Source: an uncultured Gemmataceae bacterium (lineage in GTDB: Bacteria; Planctomycetota; Planctomycetia; Gemmatales; Gemmataceae). From it: a stretch of 32,000 nucleotides of DNA. A program made the translations under genes and the position numbers. Positions within the stretch are counted from its first letter, which is position 1. Each line of letters begins with the position of its first letter. Positions 3,732 to 16,302 of the stretch are shown in pieces. The stretch covers positions 56,047-88,046 of the forward strand of contig CAWDRY010000038.1 in NCBI GenBank assembly GCA_963804745.1. The letters run 5' to 3'. Below the pieces are notes generated by a model. That model ran no database searches. It was not told the DNA's origin and saw nothing but the letters and a program-made list of their open reading frames with translations.

Positions 3732-5530
3732 ATGATTCGCAAGCATTGGCTTCTTATCACCGTCGTCCTGGTGGTTCCCGTCTTGATTCTGCTTCTGGCC
3801 GTTGGCGGGTACTTCGTCGTGTGGCCGTGGCTGACTCCTGCCGTCGCCAAGCCGCGGCCTGTTATCACCGTCGAGGCAGTCTATCCGGGAGCCAACGCCC
3901 AGATCGTCGCTGACGCCGTGGCCGCGCCGTCGAACAGCAGCTCAACGGCGTCGAGAACATGGTATTCATGCATTCACAGTGCGGGAACGACGGAGCCTAC
4001 ACGCTGAACGTAACATTCAAGCATGGAGTCAATCCCGATTTTGCCCAGGTACTGGTCCGGAATCGCGTCAACCTTGCTCATCCGGTCCTGCCGGATGCGG
4101 TCAAGAAAACAGGCATTACAGTCAGGAAGAGGTCCCTTAATGCAGTCATGTTCGTGGTCGTGTCTTCGCCCGACAACAGCCGGGACATCCTCTATCTCGG
4201 CAACTATGCCAATATCCATCTCAGAGACGAGCTAGCCCGACTTCCCGGCGTCGGAGACATCACTGTCATCGGCGCGCGGGAGTTCGGTATGCGCATCTGT
4301 CTCGATCTTGAAAGAATGGCGGCCTGCAACGTGACGGTCTCCGATGTGACCAAAGCGATCAAGGAGCAGCCCGTTGCCGATCTACAGCAGATCGAGAACA
4401 TCAATCTGAAAGCTGACCCCGACAGAATGGTCCGCCTGAAGGACGTGGCTCGGGCGGAACTGGGAATGGACTATCCAGCAAGTTTTGCTCGCCTCAATGG
4501 TAAGCCCGTCGTGGTCATGGGCGTTTACCCCATGCCGCTGTCTTCTCCGCGCGAGTTGAATGTCGCGGTGCAGAACAAGCTGTCGGAACTACGGGGATTG
4601 CTCCCCAATGGCATTGCTGTTGATGTCGCCTTCAACTTCACTCCGAACCTTGTGGCCTCGAACCTGGGGACGCCACCTGAGTACCTGCGGCTCGACATCT
4701 CCTTGCCGGATGGCGTGTCGGTGGAGCGTACTCAGGAAGCTGTGAAACATTGTGAGCAGTTGCTCAACGAAGTGGCAGGTGTGCAGGATATCCTGGCCCT
4801 GAGCGTCCCTCCGTTCACTGCTTCCAGCAACCAGGCCGGCATTCTGCTACATCTGGCTCCTGCGAAGCAGAGACAGGCCAATCGGGAGCAACTCATGCAG
4901 ACTATCCGCGCCCGGCTCCGTGATGGACTGCCGGAAGCGCAGGCACGGGTGTGCGATGTAACGAAGTCGAGCCGATTTCCGCTGGGTGGTTACCCCATCG
5001 AACTCGCCATCCAAGGCCCGGAGCCGGATAAAGTGAGAAGGTTGGCACGCGAGCTAGCTGATCGGCTACGCCAGAGCGAGAAACTGACGGACGTGGGGAC
5101 GAGCGCGGGGGCCGCGTTGGCGCCAAATATCGACATGACCATCGACAGAGCCAGGGCGAAAAGGCTGGGAGTTTCGATGGAGGACATTGACAATACCTTG
5201 CGGGTTCACCGCGGCGCATTTTACGTCAAAGTGAACGTGCAAGTGGATGCCGATGCCCGCAAGCGGATCGATGATCTTAGCATGATGTTGCTCCGCAATG
5301 ATAAGGGGGAAATCGTCCCATTGGCTGCTGTCGTCGAAGTGCATGCAGTGGACTGGCCTGTGGTTGCCGAGCGATTCAACATGAACCCGATGGTGGGAAT
5401 CACGGCCAATCCCGCGCCCGGAGTCTCCCTGAAGGAGGCCCGGTCGCTCTGCGAGACCTTGGCGCAAGAGGTCTGCAAGGAACTCGGAGTGTCGGCGGAG
5501 TACCGGTTGACGTGGATGCAGGAACCGTAG
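3732..5530 (+). pseudogene. RND (AcrB-like) derivative retaining only a signal-anchor helix plus both periplasmic porter/docking loops; one frameshift near 3930
   Basis: ORF 3732..4007 gives a hydrophobic N-terminus then VITVEAVYPGANAQIVADAVAAP. Homology continues in ORF 3959..5530 after a 1-nt slip (..EQQLNGVENMVFMHSQ..). Loop-1-like sequence (..GIAVDVAFNFTPNL) runs directly into loop-2-like sequence (PPEYLRLDISLPDGVSVERTQEAV..). The ORF stops at ..EYRLTWMQEP, where TM8 would begin. No TM2-TM12 equivalents are present. Confidence 0.65.
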
Positions 5531-11715: not shown

Positions 11716-11946
11716 TTGTGCTCCTCCTGTCCTTGGGGTGATCGATTCTCCGAACAGAGTAGTTTAGGGGCTTTACTGAAAATGGACAACTGAGTTTTGT
11801 GCAGGCCGGCTCGTGGGTGCAGAACCTTGCGTTTCCACCTGCCTCCTCAACGAGCCAGTTCATCTTCGGTGTACCCGGACAGGTAAAGCACTTTAGCTTC
11901 GGGCCGCAGATGGGTCAATCTCTGTGCGAGATGGCGACCGATCAGA

Positions 11947-12085
11947 GTGCAGGACACGGTTTGCAACGGCGCGTGAAATACCCTGGAGGCTCTGTAGCCG
12001 AATTCGCCAGAATTCGGGGCCTGGGGAGAGAGCACAGCCCCCGAATTCTGGCGAATTCGGCTACGACGCAAACCATGTCCTGCAC
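11947..12085. repeat. 139-nt nested palindromic element in the DUF1571/feoA divergent intergenic region
   Basis: Outer arms are GTGCAGGACACGGTTTGC (11947-11964) and GCAAACCATGTCCTGCAC (12068-12085). Inner arms of 27/28 nt are GTAGCCGAATTCGCCAGAATTCGGGGC (11994-12020) and its complement (12037-12064). Each inner arm is itself a hairpin (CCGAATTC-nnnn-GAATTCGG). Confidence 0.8.
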
Positions 12086-12185
12086 CAGACCGGTCATGTT
12101 ACATGAAATGGGACACGATGACGCAGTGAAAATGCTGGTAAACATGCTTGCTTACAAAAAAGTAAAGAATCTTGCAACCATGGAC

Positions 12186-12224
12186 TTGACAAAGCTAGCA
12201 GAGCATGTAGACTGAGATTCAGTC
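12186..12224 (+). promoter_or_regulatory. candidate sigma70-type promoter with overlapping palindromic operator upstream of feoA
   Basis: TTGACA (12186-12191), a 16-nt spacer, then TAGACT (12208-12213). The palindrome GACTGA-GAT-TCAGTC (12210-12224) overlaps the -10 and start region. The site lies ~150 nt upstream of feoA. Confidence 0.35.
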
Positions 12225-12373: not shown

Positions 12374-12622
12374 ATGGCTTCTCTGGACAAGACGCCGGTT
12401 GGCCAACGAGTCCGCATCACGGCAATCCACGGCGACGACGCCATCTTTCAACGTCTCCTGGAAATGGGACTGCTGGAGGGCGAAGAAATCGAAGTTATCG
12501 GCTTCGCTCCTCTCGGTGATCCGATGGAAATTCGTTTGCGTGATTATCGGCTCAGCCTGCGGCGGAGTGAGGCGGCCAGGATTGACGTGACTCGCCTTGC
12601 AGATGATGGGGTGACAAGGTGA
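12374..12622 (+). CDS. feoA: ferrous iron transport protein A
   Basis: 82-aa ORF with the FeoA pattern (VGQRVRITAI..D....RLLEMGLLEGEEIEV......GDPMEIRLRDYRLSLRRSEAARI). It lies directly upstream of feoB. Confidence 0.9.
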   Translation: MASLDKTPVGQRVRITAIHGDDAIFQRLLEMGLLEGEEIEVIGFAPLGDPMEIRLRDYRLSLRRSEAARIDVTRLADDGVTR

Positions 12623-12686
12623 CAAGGTGAAAGGGTGACAAGGTGACAAGGTGACAGGGTGACAGGGTGACAAGGTGACAAGGTAA
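12609..12686. repeat. tandem octanucleotide array (GTGACARG) x ~9-10, covering the last feoA codons and its stop
   Basis: Direct reading gives GTGACAAG x2, GTGAAAGG, GTGACAAG x2, GTGACAGG x2, GTGACAAG x2, then a degenerate unit. The feoA TGA stop is part of a repeat unit. Confidence 0.95.
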
Positions 12687-12752
12687 AGAGGCGACGGCAT
12701 TCCAATTCTGCCGAGGTTTTGGCGATGAAGCAAGTGAAGAAAGAAGCAAGCT

Positions 12753-15011
12753 ATGGAGTCACCCTGTCACCCTGTCACCCTGTCACCTTGTCATCCTGTC
12801 ACCTTGTCACCCTGTCATCCTGTCACGGTGGCTCTCCTCGGCAACCCCAACACCGGCAAGACGACGCTCTTTAACGCCCTGGCCGGCATGCGGCAGCGGG
12901 TGGGCAACTATCCCGGCGTCACCGTCGAAACGAAAAAGGGGCGGATGACCCACCAGGGCCAGGTGTTTCACGTGGTTGATCTCCCCGGCACCTACAGCCT
13001 GGCGCCGCGCAGTCCGGACGAGATGGTCGCGGTCGATCTCATCCTCGGGGATCAAGCAGGCGAGGAACGACCCGACGTAATAGTCGCCATCGTCGATGCC
13101 TCCAACCTCGAACGCAATCTTTACCTGACCACGCAGGCGATGGAAGTGGGCGTGCCGGTCGTCATCGCGCTTAACATGATCGACGTGGCCGAGCGGCAGG
13201 GATTGCACATCGACACGGAACGATTGGCTCGCCAGCTTGGCATGCCCGTTGTCCCAATTCAGGCGAACAAGCGGAAGGGACTGGACCGGCTCAAACAGGC
13301 GGTTGCGGAAGCAGTGGTCAGTGGTCAGTGGTCAGTGGTCAGTGGTCAGTGGTCAGTGGTCAGTGAGAGGAGAAACCAGGGGACGTGGCGGGCACCGCCA
13401 TTTCCCGAGGCATTCGAGCGTGAGGCAACAGCGCTGCACGACGCTATTGGCGATAGCACGCCTCCGTTTCTTGTTCGCCGGCTACTTCTGGACGTTGGCG
13501 GCCATACTGAGCGATGTTTCGCCGAACGCAACGGAGCGAATCTCCCTGATCTAGTGAAAGCGGCACGAGAGCGGCTGGCGGCGGCGGGTTGTGCAGTGCC
13601 GGCCGTGGAAGCCAGGACGCGCTATGCCTGGATTCGGCAAGCGACGGCAGACTGCATTCTCCGTCCCGAACAACGGCCCGTCATCTGGACTGATCGGCTC
13701 GACCGCGTGCTGACGCACTGGCTCTGGGGCACGCTGATCTTTCTAGCGCTGATGGCCGTCGTGTTCACGTCGATCTTCTATCTGGCCGACCCGCCCATGA
13801 AGGTGATCGAAAACGGCAAAAACGCCCTCGGCAACAGGCTGAGTGACTGGCTGCCGCCCGGACCCCTCACCAGCCTGCTGATCAGGGGTGTGCTGGAGGG
13901 CGTCGGCAGCGTGCTCAAGTTCCTGCCGCAGATCCTCATCCTGTTCGGCTTCCTCGCCATCCTGGAGGACTGCGGCTACATGGCCCGGGCTGCGTATCTC
14001 ATGGACAAGATCATGAGCCAGTGCGGGCTGAACGGCAAGTCGTTCATTCCGATGCTCTCCTCGATGGCCTGCGCGGTGCCCGGCATCATGGCGACGCGCG
14101 TCATCGAGAACCGGCGCGATCGGCTGGCGACCATCCTCGTAGCTCCGCTGGTGAGTTGTTCAGCCCGGCTGCCGGTGTACACGCTGCTGATCGCCGCCTT
14201 TATTCCCACGGACACGGTCCTCGGCTACTGCCTGCCTGGGCTGGTCATGTTCTCCATGTACATGATCGGTCTCATCGTGGCGCCGCTCGTGGCTCTGTTG
14301 CTGAAGCGGACGCTGCTGCGCGGCGAGACGCCGGCCTTTGTCATGGAGATGCCGCTCTACAAATGGCCGTCGCCGCGGCTGGTGATCCGGCGCATGCTCG
14401 ACAGCGGCTGGGCTTTCGTTCGCCGGGCGGGCACGCTCATCCTGGCCAGCATGATTCTCGTCTATGCCCTGTTGTACTTCCCTTCCAACGGCTACGACCA
14501 GCAAATTGCCGATCTGCGAGATGATCTCAAGAAGACGACAGACAACGACGCTCGGAAGGACATCAAGGAGCAGATCAACAAGTGTGACGGCGACTGGAAA
14601 CGACAAAGCATCCTGGGCCGGACGGGGCGTGCCATCGAGCCGGCCGTGAAACCTTTGGGCTGGGATTGGCGCATCGGCATGGCGGCATTGGCAAGCTTCC
14701 CGGCTCGCGAGGTCGTGGTCGGCACGTTGGGGGTCATCTACAACGTTGGTGAGGCGGAACCTCAGAAACTGCACGACCCGCTGAAGAATGCGACCTGGGA
14801 TGACGATCCTGGCCGCAAGGTCTTCACGATACCGACGGCCCTATCGCTGATGGTGTTCTTTGCGTTATGCTGTCAATGCGCCTCGACGCTGGCGGTGATT
14901 AAACGCGAGACACGAAGCTGGCGCTGGCCGATTTTCACGTTTGTGTACATGACGGTATTGGCGTATGTCGGGGCGCTGGTGGTATATCAGATAGGGAGCT
15001 TGATAATCTGA
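12753..15011 (+). CDS. feoB: ferrous iron transporter FeoB
   Basis: Intact 752-aa ORF. G-domain motifs are GNPNTGKTTLFNALAG, DLPGTYS and NMID, followed by multi-pass membrane gate regions. The first 24 codons are repeat-encoded (SPCHPVTL x3). An in-frame GTG at 12828 is an alternative start just before ALLGNPNTGKT. Confidence 0.95.
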   Translation: MESPCHPVTLSPCHPVTLSPCHPVTVALLGNPNTGKTTLFNALAGMRQRVGNYPGVTVETKKGRMTHQGQVFHVVDLPGTYSLAPRSPDEMVAVDLILGDQAGEERPDVIVAIVDASNLERNLYLTTQAMEVGVPVVIALNMIDVAERQGLHIDTERLARQLGMPVVPIQANKRKGLDRLKQAVAEAVVSGQWSVVSGQWSVVSERRNQGTWRAPPFPEAFEREATALHDAIGDSTPPFLVRRLLLDVGGHTERCFAERNGANLPDLVKAARERLAAAGCAVPAVEARTRYAWIRQATADCILRPEQRPVIWTDRLDRVLTHWLWGTLIFLALMAVVFTSIFYLADPPMKVIENGKNALGNRLSDWLPPGPLTSLLIRGVLEGVGSVLKFLPQILILFGFLAILEDCGYMARAAYLMDKIMSQCGLNGKSFIPMLSSMACAVPGIMATRVIENRRDRLATILVAPLVSCSARLPVYTLLIAAFIPTDTVLGYCLPGLVMFSMYMIGLIVAPLVALLLKRTLLRGETPAFVMEMPLYKWPSPRLVIRRMLDSGWAFVRRAGTLILASMILVYALLYFPSNGYDQQIADLRDDLKKTTDNDARKDIKEQINKCDGDWKRQSILGRTGRAIEPAVKPLGWDWRIGMAALASFPAREVVVGTLGVIYNVGEAEPQKLHDPLKNATWDDDPGRKVFTIPTALSLMVFFALCCQCASTLAVIKRETRSWRWPIFTFVYMTVLAYVGALVVYQIGSLII
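12758..12826. repeat. tandem octanucleotide array (CYTGTCAC-type) x ~8.5, the reverse complement of the 12609-12686 array
   Basis: Units read GTCACCCT x3, GTCACCTT, GTCATCCT, GTCACCTT, GTCACCCT, GTCATCCT, GTCAC. The array starts 3 nt after the ATG at 12753. Confidence 0.95.
13314..13365. repeat. tandem heptanucleotide array (GTGGTCA) x 7 inside feoB
   Basis: Seven perfect GTGGTCA units span 13314-13362, plus a partial GTG. They are translated as VVSGQWSVVSGQWSVVS, between the G domain and the following helical domain. Confidence 0.95.
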
Positions 15012-15297: not shown

Positions 15298-16302
15298 ATG
15301 TCACAAGGAACTGAAGGACATTTGGAACACGCGGAACATGCTCAGCACGCGGCACACGATCCGTTCGACCGGCGCGTGGCGATGACGATGACGATTGTGG
15401 CGGCGGTGCTGGCGTGCGTCACCATGCTCAGTCATCGGGCACATAATGACAGGCTCGCGCTCCAGAATGATGCGCATGCTGAGCAGACCGAGGTATTGAG
15501 TATCCAGAATGAGGTGATCCGCTTGCAGAACGAAGCGGGAGATGACAAGACCGAAGTGGTGCGCGTCGTTCTGCAAGCGCTAGACATAAAGAACGAGGGG
15601 ATCAGCCAACAGAACGACAAGTCTGCTTTGCAGGCAGACTCGAACAAGCTGATGACACAGGTTGACACCCTGCACACCAAGGCTTCCGACCAGTGGAGCT
15701 ATTTCCAGGCCAAGAAGAACCGCCAATACTTGTACGAGGCTTGTGCAGAACTCCTCTCCGTGACCGCCAAGGATGCCAACAATCCGAAAGCCGCCGAAGA
15801 AGCCAACCAGTTCATCATGGACTGGAAAAAGAAGACAGAGGAATACCAGGCAGACACCAAGAACATTGAGAAGGAGGCACGCGGTCTCGAAGCGGAAGCC
15901 AAGAAGCTTTTAACTGAAGATCAAAAGAAACAGCAGGAAATCGACAAGAAACAGCAGGAAATCCAAAAGACGCAGGAGAAAGCTCAACAAAAGCAGGCCG
16001 AGATCCAGAAAATGCTAGAAGCGGCACAGGAGAAGAAGAGCGAGATCCAGAAAAAGCAACAAGAAGCCCAGAATAAGCAAGCGGACAGATCTTACGAGAA
16101 GACACGCGAGAAAAGCCATCAGGTCCACCTCCGCGCTAACCGATATGATTACTCGGAACTAGGACTCGAGATGGCACTGATCCTGTGTTCCGTCGCCGTG
16201 TTGACAAAACAGCGAGCTTTCTGGTTTTCGGGCATGGTTGTCGGATTGGTGGGACTGTCAATAGCTACCACGGGCTGGTTTGGGTTGTTCATGCCGCACT
16301 GA
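15298..16302 (+). CDS. DUF4337-family membrane protein with His-rich N-terminus and expanded Q/K/E coiled-coil insert
   Basis: Family-like features: HLEHAEHAQHAAHDPFDRRVAMTMTIVAAVLA.., ASDQWSYFQAKKNR, and a C-terminal TM pair. The 334 aa are longer than the family size I remember (~190 aa) because of a KKQQEI/QKxQ repeat region (15900-16090). I prefer the ATG at 15298 over the ORF-track start at 15139, which overlaps the previous gene. Confidence 0.6.
   Translation: MSQGTEGHLEHAEHAQHAAHDPFDRRVAMTMTIVAAVLACVTMLSHRAHNDRLALQNDAHAEQTEVLSIQNEVIRLQNEAGDDKTEVVRVVLQALDIKNEGISQQNDKSALQADSNKLMTQVDTLHTKASDQWSYFQAKKNRQYLYEACAELLSVTAKDANNPKAAEEANQFIMDWKKKTEEYQADTKNIEKEARGLEAEAKKLLTEDQKKQQEIDKKQQEIQKTQEKAQQKQAEIQKMLEAAQEKKSEIQKKQQEAQNKQADRSYEKTREKSHQVHLRANRYDYSELGLEMALILCSVAVLTKQRAFWFSGMVVGLVGLSIATTGWFGLFMPH

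Follow-up and report, generated by a model that had tools for sequence, protein, structure and literature searches.

A candidate intercistronic hairpin built of inverted octamer arrays at the feoA-feoB junction of a Gemmataceae bacterium

Four filamentous cyanobacteria have short tandemly repeated repetitive (STRR) sequences able to form hairpins between hupS and hupL, and such sequences also occur upstream of hoxW; for these hairpins, the authors suggest roles in transcript stability, translational coupling or termination (PMC2670836). Arrays of the heptamer TAACTGA are common to Beggiatoaceae, Cyanobacteria and Bacteroidetes with no evident transfer mechanism; they adjoin start codons and have been proposed to act post-transcriptionally (MacGregor, 2015; PMC4679880). 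According to a survey as cited in the same paper, long simple-sequence repeats with units of 5-11 nucleotides (nt) typify a scattered set of prokaryote genomes. By analogy, the hupS-hupL hairpins and the cross-phylum TAACTGA arrays appear to be the closest precedents for the element described here, a pair of mutually inverted octamer arrays at the junction of the iron-transport genes feoA and feoB. The element lies in a 32,000-nt stretch from an uncultured Gemmataceae bacterium (contig CAWDRY010000038.1, positions 56,047 to 88,046 of the forward strand), which is referred to as the window and in whose numbering coordinates are given unless another contig is named.

We read this junction as an STRR-type intercistronic hairpin element that modulates expression of feoA and feoB, a reading to which a probability of about 0.5 is assigned. 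Rather than switching feoB on and off, the element probably serves as a structural or regulatory RNA hairpin. Arrays of 7-8 nt units common to distant phyla, such as STRR and TAACTGA, have been known for decades. The feo locus provides a tractable case because the element holds an orthologous position between two genes of known function. The locus also offers natural variation, in presence or absence of the element, in arm length and in the loss of one arm, and octamer arrays occur in culturable relatives, for example Zavarzinella formosa. It could show whether such hairpins set cistron expression ratios or are just tolerated.

Inverted octamer arrays between feoA and feoB

The junction contains the following features, in which L197 denotes a contig from a sister strain and TRF is Tandem Repeats Finder.

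12374..12622, + strand: feoA (Pfam FeoA, E = 6.8e-23)
12610..12684, + strand: array 1, the 5' arm, GGTGACAR x9.4 (TRF, pattern search); 48 nt shorter in L197
12685..12757, + strand: loop or spacer of 73 nt, which holds ATG 12725 and ATG 12753; sequence not conserved across species
12758..12826, + strand: array 2, the 3' arm, YTGTCACC x8.6 (TRF); same in L197; contains an in-frame TTG at 12804
12753..15011, + strand: feoB, most likely extent (Pfam FeoB_N, Gate and FeoB_C; FeoB_N begins at residue 25)

TRF resolved array 1 as GGTGACAA x9.4 (12610-12684, 91% matches), trailed by two degenerate units that reach 12697, and array 2 as GTCACCCT x8.6 (12758-12826, 86% matches, with several variant units). 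Array 2 is the reverse complement of array 1 and is spaced 73 nt from it. An inverted-repeat search returned arms of 68-77 nt with 83-90% complementarity. A two-unit 16-mer, searched with at most two mismatches, matched 16 times in the 32-kb window, with all matches inside the two arrays and a shuffle expectation of 0.06. The RNA of 12590-12850 was predicted to fold into a single stem of ~65 pairs closed by a loop of ~70 nt, at -145.6 kcal/mol compared with -88 +/- 4.8 kcal/mol in shuffles (z = -12.1). TRF, the inverted-repeat search and the RNA fold, with its stem of ~65 bp, thus confirm an earlier description of this DNA made without database searches (the sequence-only reading), which had placed two mutually inverted octamer arrays around the feoA stop and the feoB start. 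The arrays are not an assembly artefact; a second assembly, from the ~98% identical strain represented by L197, has the same structure.

The two arms differ in coding character. The 3' end of feoA reads GGG GTG ACA AGG TGA, and the stop codon falls within the first array-1 unit. Each array-1 unit contains TGA, so that all three frames are closed, and array 2 is stop-free in every frame. These features had been correctly described from the sequence. GGTG is present at both ends of the element, and excision of 217 nt would join feoA and feoB in frame, an outcome with a chance expectation of 1 in 3.

The two genes may be co-transcribed, as suggested by a predicted promoter-like site upstream of feoA (12186-12213) together with the lack of a terminator-like site between them. 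An intrinsic terminator, that is, a short GC-rich stem followed by a U tract, was not found at the junction, and no T run follows arm 2. Rfam 15 returned no family at the gathering score, with only chance matches far below it.

The junction carries head-to-tail units in the 5-11 nt range beyond chance, as do STRRs and long simple-sequence repeats, and, like hupS-hupL, has inverted arrays foldable to a hairpin between co-oriented neighbour genes. Also in common with the cyanobacterial STRRs are the short tandem units, the many dispersed copies per genome and the occurrence of some inverted-array hairpins between co-transcribed genes; an STRR1-like heptamer (ACTGGGG) is even present in loci that carry the octamer. 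The feo unit differs in having 8 nt rather than 7, a planctomycete host and a distribution over at least nine phyla. The original STRR definition, a heptamer in a heterocystous cyanobacterium, therefore does not cover the feo element, which belongs to the wider class only. In contrast to the hupS-hupL sequences, the feo arms overlap both coding sequences, taking in the upstream stop and the downstream N-terminal codons, and the stem of ~65 bp is far longer.

Conservation of the junction and the start of FeoB

The best relatives of the window FeoB share 62-71% identity with it and are from Gemmataceae (Planctomycetota) wherever the source is named. Among the 120 best homologues, 14 bear a clear array-2-derived N-terminus just before the G1 motif (SPCHLVTL, SPSHPVTL, SPRHPVTP or SPHHL), and these are placed in several clades of the FeoB tree. 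FeoB relatives from a metagenome scan are mostly distant (45-68% identity) and, among the matches listed, lack arrays; they serve as a negative control only.

Junction DNA was compared among five array-bearing operons (L112, L113, L194, L195 and L196), the window and the sister strain L197. The window layout, with the feoA stop provided by an array-1 TGA and array 2 ending just before the G domain, is shared by L113, L194, L195 and L196. The in-frame feoB start is located in the loop in L113 and L196 and in an array-1 unit in L194 and L195. In the orthologous operons, ~35-90 nt separate the two arrays, and unit numbers range from 3 to 8.6 between species. The comparison with related genomes, suggested in the sequence-only reading, thus found the layout retained in four operons but not throughout: L112 keeps array 2 only, with a 9-mer array, GCTGCAAAT x4 (L112 610-648), in place of array 1, and L135 has no arrays. 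Predicted hairpins in a cross-locus fold comparison were as follows.

Window: dG -140 kcal/mol, z -16
L197: dG -103 kcal/mol, z -12
L113: dG -89 kcal/mol, z -4.8
L196: dG -61 kcal/mol, z -3.3
L195: dG -47 kcal/mol, z -4.3
L194: dG -52 kcal/mol, z -1.9
L112: dG -49 kcal/mol, z -0.7

The predicted hairpin is significant in the window, L197, L113, L195 and L196. The loops are not alignable between species (mean column identity 43%, no common motif), whereas the arms remain recognisable; thus the arms are kept while the loop drifts. The element at feo is either ancient with repeated loss or the product of repeated insertion at the same boundary.

The position of the FeoB start determines whether array 2 is read as protein. 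Translated from ATG 12753, the feoB open reading frame (ORF) begins M-E-(SPCHPVTL)x3, all three octapeptides coming from array 2, and then enters the G1 motif. After the last stop, the in-frame starts in the window are ATG 12753, TTG 12804 and GTG 12828, at 29, 12 and 4 residues ahead of the G1 glycine, respectively; typical homologues have at least 11-12 residues before this glycine. GTG 12828 is in frame, directly follows arm 2 and has a GTG counterpart at the matching position in L112 and L196. However, it lies downstream of the start of the Pfam FeoB_N match (residue 25 of the long ORF), has no upstream Shine-Dalgarno-like motif, and corresponds to no start codon in L113, L194 or L195. L194 and L195 contain no ATG, GTG or TTG between array 2 and G1. 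The sole in-frame start of L194 is 40 codons upstream of the G1 glycine and those of L195 are 27 and 31 codons upstream; L113 offers starts 43 codons upstream or, within array 2, 18 codons upstream. Array 2 must therefore be translated in L194 and L195, and most likely is translated in the window too. GTG 12828 is unlikely to be the FeoB start. Judged from the reading frames, the data support arm 2 as a low-complexity N-terminal leader of FeoB that ends exactly where the G domain starts. A further start in the window, ATG 12725, has the best ribosome-binding context (GAGG at 12713-12716, 8-nt spacing) and is in the +1 frame relative to feoB, so that two of the three frames have a start in the loop (12725 and 12753).

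In L194 (1494-1503) and L195 (1272-1282), the only start that feoB could use is a GTG in the array-1 unit next after the unit holding the feoA TGA. The feoA stop and the feoB start are only 4-5 nt apart there, and array units double as stop and start.

The encoded Cys-His dipeptides had been read as a possible metal-binding extension. This is unlikely; at the matching positions the orthologues have SPSH, SPRH, SPHH or SPGH, so that Cys is not kept, and the peptide as a whole lacks conservation at its Cys and His positions. FeoB starts, and the SPCHLVTL-type N-terminal peptides of many hypothetical proteins, derive from these arrays, which bears on annotation.

The exact FeoA sequence was found on two further contigs, L197 and L198. 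L197, with a length of 747 kb, is ~98% identical to the window; the short-read contig L198 stops within arm 1 and shows a third unit order. The single-base indels of L197 are typical of long-read error, and weight was given to multi-unit differences only. The arm-1 region measures 40 nt in L197 and is longer by six unit lengths (48 nt) in the window, at 88 nt, whereas arm 2 is base-for-base identical. The junction loops differ by one A in a GAAGAAAGAAG run (GAAGAAAGAAG against GAAGAAGAAG), possibly a long-read error; this difference would put ATG 12725 in frame. A second array is located within feoB.

13312..13365, + strand: perfect heptamer array CAGTGGT x7.7 within feoB (TRF, 100% matches)

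This array, of the STRR-like class, encodes repeats of VVSGQWS in the variable linker that follows the G domain. It is three units (21 nt) shorter in L197, with the frame preserved, and a 72-nt perfect palindrome has been inserted into it there (L197 about 3897-3968), again with the frame preserved. Between close strains, arm length thus shifts by whole units, the expected product of replication slippage; the shift was seen in the non-coding arm. The non-coding arm is free in length and the coding repeats are unchanged or frame-preserving, as purifying selection on FeoB predicts and opposite to an ON/OFF switch, in the two genomes compared. At L197 4348 (window 13718), a 1-nt A insertion splits feoB into two called ORFs; feoB may be a real pseudogene there, or the insertion may be a long-read homopolymer error.

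A dispersed octamer family of fixed polarity

A scan with the pattern GGTGACARGGTGACARGGTGACA over one genome per prokaryotic species found octamer arrays at at least 111 loci in at least nine phyla, as named in the record titles; the window's own genome was surveyed within the 32 kb. Statements on taxa, neighbours and pairs in this family refer to the matches listed. The hosts include Chloroflexota (Caldilineaceae, Anaerolineae, Roseiflexaceae and Kouleothrix), Planctomycetota (Gemmataceae, Zavarzinella formosa DSM 19928, Phycisphaerae and Tepidisphaeraceae) and Bacteroidota (Saprospiraceae, Bacteroidales and Prolixibacteraceae), as well as Acidobacteriota, Cyanobacteriota, Verrucomicrobiota, Gemmatimonadota, Elusimicrobiota and one metagenome-assembled genome (MAG) of Alcaligenaceae (Pseudomonadota). 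Several loci occur in single MAGs (for example JAEUUQ01, JADKFS01, DAOUCA01, CAZKEX01 and JAIBAN01), a recurrence characteristic of the STRR class. Octamer arrays of up to 24 units are also present on 19 IMG/VR contigs classed as viral (for example L217 3652-3844 and L202 3801-3886).

A tblastn search with FeoA and FeoB against the 111 octamer loci gave no match. All-against-all BLAST of the flanking ORFs revealed neither a neighbour family in common nor a linked transposase. The sequence-only reading had itself raised the possible objection that the octamer arrays might be a dispersed repeat with no connection to feo. The repeat is indeed dispersed over many phyla at loci without feo, but the pair is still conserved at the junction in several Gemmataceae.

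A tolerant detector identified 40 inverted pairs among the genome loci, all arranged as (GGTGACAR)n-loop-(YTGTCACC)m and none in the opposite order (binomial p = 2e-12); the loops are 3-137 nt long, with a median of 32 nt. One viral contig, L203, is a possible exception. The reverse complement of a pair keeps the same order, so the polarity is a real property of the element. Its effect is that ribosomes arriving from either side meet a stop-filled arm, while all frames are open to outward reading from the loop. Because a pair in the opposite order would be just as able to fold, RNA stability cannot account for the polarity, and the 40:0 ratio needs a coding-related constraint or selection, or a directed origin.

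The loci selected by the octamer are rich in other short repeats: arrays with a period of 6-10 nt number 321 in 772 kb, versus 11 in 356 kb of unrelated control feoB loci. They include ~120 heptamer arrays built on a wide range of units, of which the classical STRR1 unit is one, and 18 heptamer hairpins of the form array-loop-inverted array. The polarity rule is not significant in these heptamer hairpins (6 versus 2). The feo element is thus one member of a broad STRR-like class of hairpin-forming short tandem repeats. Heptamer units observed in these loci include TGAAGGA, TGAGGAC, CGTGAAA and the STRR1-like ACTGGGG (for example L008 619-703, L093 6297-6407 and L088 258-322). In L074 (2996-3180), a CGAACAT heptamer inverted pair is nested in the loop of a GGTGACAA octamer inverted pair.

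TAACTGA arrays resemble the octamer arrays in several respects: one short unit is found in distant phyla, stops close all frames, and the arrays are situated at gene boundaries near starts. They differ in unit and taxa, and are nearly all direct (169 sets, one indirect), whereas about one-third of the listed GGTGACAR loci are inverted, with strict polarity. Searches of open-access papers and preprints found neither the GGTGACAR family nor its polarity nor such a feoA-feoB junction described, in agreement with the earlier statement that no like junction was known to have been described. For the octamer dimer the literature gave no relevant match; one hit, an IS4Sa inverted repeat, contains CTTGTCACC by chance.

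Possible roles of the junction element

In the proposed mechanism, the ~65-bp stem would form an intercistronic hairpin in the feoAB transcript and uncouple feoA from feoB. The stem could shield the feoA portion from 3' exonucleases or give a double-stranded processing site, and it could throttle initiation at the feoB start beside the 3' arm. Shielding or processing and the restraint on initiation would together set the FeoA:FeoB ratio. The polarity, with stops inward and open frames outward, would let the element sit on gene ends with neither gene destroyed.

Bacterial genomes have other small palindromic repeats with effects on operons. Repetitive extragenic palindromic (REP) sequences and the related bacterial interspersed mosaic elements (BIMEs), as at malE-malF, are dispersed extragenic palindromes in operons, where the RNA hairpin stabilises the upstream mRNA and sets relative cistron expression. 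These elements have been reviewed (PMC3733652). REP and REPIN sequences are single imperfect palindromes of 20-40 bp that carry a GTAG/CGTC tag, are species-specific and are mobilised by RAYT; the feo arms are instead tagless tandem arrays of 69-75 nt overlapping coding sequence, and no linked transposase was found among the loci listed. Rickettsia palindromic elements and Correia elements are similar to the feo element in being small hairpin repeats in genes or at gene ends that can be translated without destroying the gene; they differ in that the octamer copies have no common internal sequence and their arms are tandem arrays of variable length. The family has the inverted arms of a miniature inverted-repeat transposable element (MITE), but the loops are unrelated (3-137 nt) and no target-site duplication was seen.

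Several observations weigh against a regulatory intercistronic hairpin. Arm 1 has been lost in L112, and L194 folds weakly (z = -1.9). A large Gemmataceae FeoB clade with the N-terminus MVLVRTTTVALVG has no array peptide, and in L135 the feoA-feoB gap is a plain 14 nt; the element is therefore dispensable for Feo function. ATG 12725, which has the best ribosome-binding context among the window starts, does not share the feoB frame. About 70 of the at least 111 loci are single arrays with no capacity for a hairpin, and a hairpin can therefore explain only part of the family. The strain comparison involves two assemblies, one of which (L197) has single-base indels typical of long-read error, and the regulatory role of the hairpin is one that we infer.

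The strongest alternative, a serious possibility although on balance an unlikely one, is that the same dispersed repeat is a neutral passenger with no function at feo. Having been inserted or having grown at the gene boundary, the element would persist as precise loss is rare and its design harmless, with slippage rather than selection keeping the arrays recognisable. In keeping with this, the family shows no link to any gene function, many Gemmataceae feoAB operons lack the element, neither the loop nor the encoded peptide is conserved, arm 1 is free to vary in length, and the same genomes tolerate other repeats and palindromes even within feoB. A passenger does not readily explain why the arms are still complementary where FeoB is only 62-71% identical, though the loop has been randomised. 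As a rule, bacterial DNA does not stably maintain long perfect inverted repeats, which also counts against it, and the uniform polarity of all 40 pairs calls for either selection or a directed mechanism.

A broader and rather speculative extension is that the element represents an undescribed cross-phylum family of fixed polarity, either maintained by a directed mechanism or read by a conserved machine, most plausibly the translation or RNA-processing apparatus, with the copies at gene boundaries forming a layer of post-transcriptional control. It would fit with the octamer being common to at least nine phyla, with pairs polarised 40:0, and with array units serving as stop and, in L194 and L195, as GTG start.

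The sequence-only reading had put forward, on condition that ATG 12753 is the real start, a contingency locus, in which slippage of the 8-nt units of arm 2 in the feoB frame would toggle FeoB on and off; we consider this very unlikely. As in the simple-sequence contingency loci of host-adapted pathogens (Haemophilus, Neisseria and Moraxella), a tract within the reading frame, whose unit length cannot be divided by 3, separates the start codon of a nutrient-acquisition gene from the rest of that gene. Arm 2 indeed lies between the only usable starts and the G domain in several orthologues, the number of units varies across species, and arm 1 and the internal heptamer array do vary in length between close strains. 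Unlike the tracts of contingency loci, however, arm 2 is interrupted (86% matches) and paired with an inverted copy, and it is identical in both strains despite the six-unit change in arm 1, albeit in a very small sample. All seven junctions examined (7/7) have arm 2 in the ON frame, and the feoB heptamer array changed by exactly three units, which kept the frame. Starts in two frames of the loop, together with in-frame TTGs in arm 2, buffer frame shifts. The hosts are free-living planctomycetes, and the same arrays lie beside unrelated genes. The claim of a phase-variable iron transporter is not supported, and the cross-phylum octamer family with its strict polarity is the more interesting lead.

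Less probable still is an array of binding sites, in which a conserved factor that binds RNA or DNA, perhaps the ribosome itself, would recognise the units. Such recognition would account for the retention of one identical unit in at least nine phyla. The GGUGA of the 5' arm is Shine-Dalgarno-like, and the overlapping GUG and UGA (GUGA) in each unit could relay termination and re-initiation, as might occur in L194 and L195, where the feoB GTG start belongs to the array-1 unit next after the feoA-stop unit. Pairing of the octamer with the anti-Shine-Dalgarno tail reaches -8.3 kcal/mol, within the top 5% of permutations, but is weak beside a real Shine-Dalgarno sequence (-21 kcal/mol). Other units are not enriched for a stop combined with a Shine-Dalgarno-like motif (15 observed versus 13 +/- 3 shuffled), and with the octamer pairing only moderate, Shine-Dalgarno/anti-Shine-Dalgarno mimicry was rejected as a general rule. 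A regulator-binding role has been proposed for TAACTGA arrays (PMC4679880); at the feo element, the 8-bp period puts successive sites on different faces of the DNA helix, and no candidate binding protein was identified.

Least probable of all is the earlier proposal that both arrays are untranslated and hide the start region of a FeoB made from GTG 12828; its predicted hairpin is real, but that start is unlikely, with 4 residues ahead of the G1 glycine and array 2 translated in L194 and L195.

Some further features of the window are listed for completeness. The gene for a FeoB-associated Cys-rich small protein follows feoB. Upstream of feoA, a 152-nt nested palindrome (11941-12092; RNA fold -88.7 kcal/mol) consists of outer arms of 18 nt (11947-11964 and 12068-12085) and inner arms of 30 nt (11994-12023 and 12035-12064). 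It is missing from L197 and L198, is flanked by a GACCG direct repeat and looks like a recent MITE-type insertion. At 15920-15977, a 21-nt tandem repeat of ~3 copies in a DUF4337 gene encodes QKKQQEI-type repeats and has the appearance of an ordinary in-frame coding repeat.

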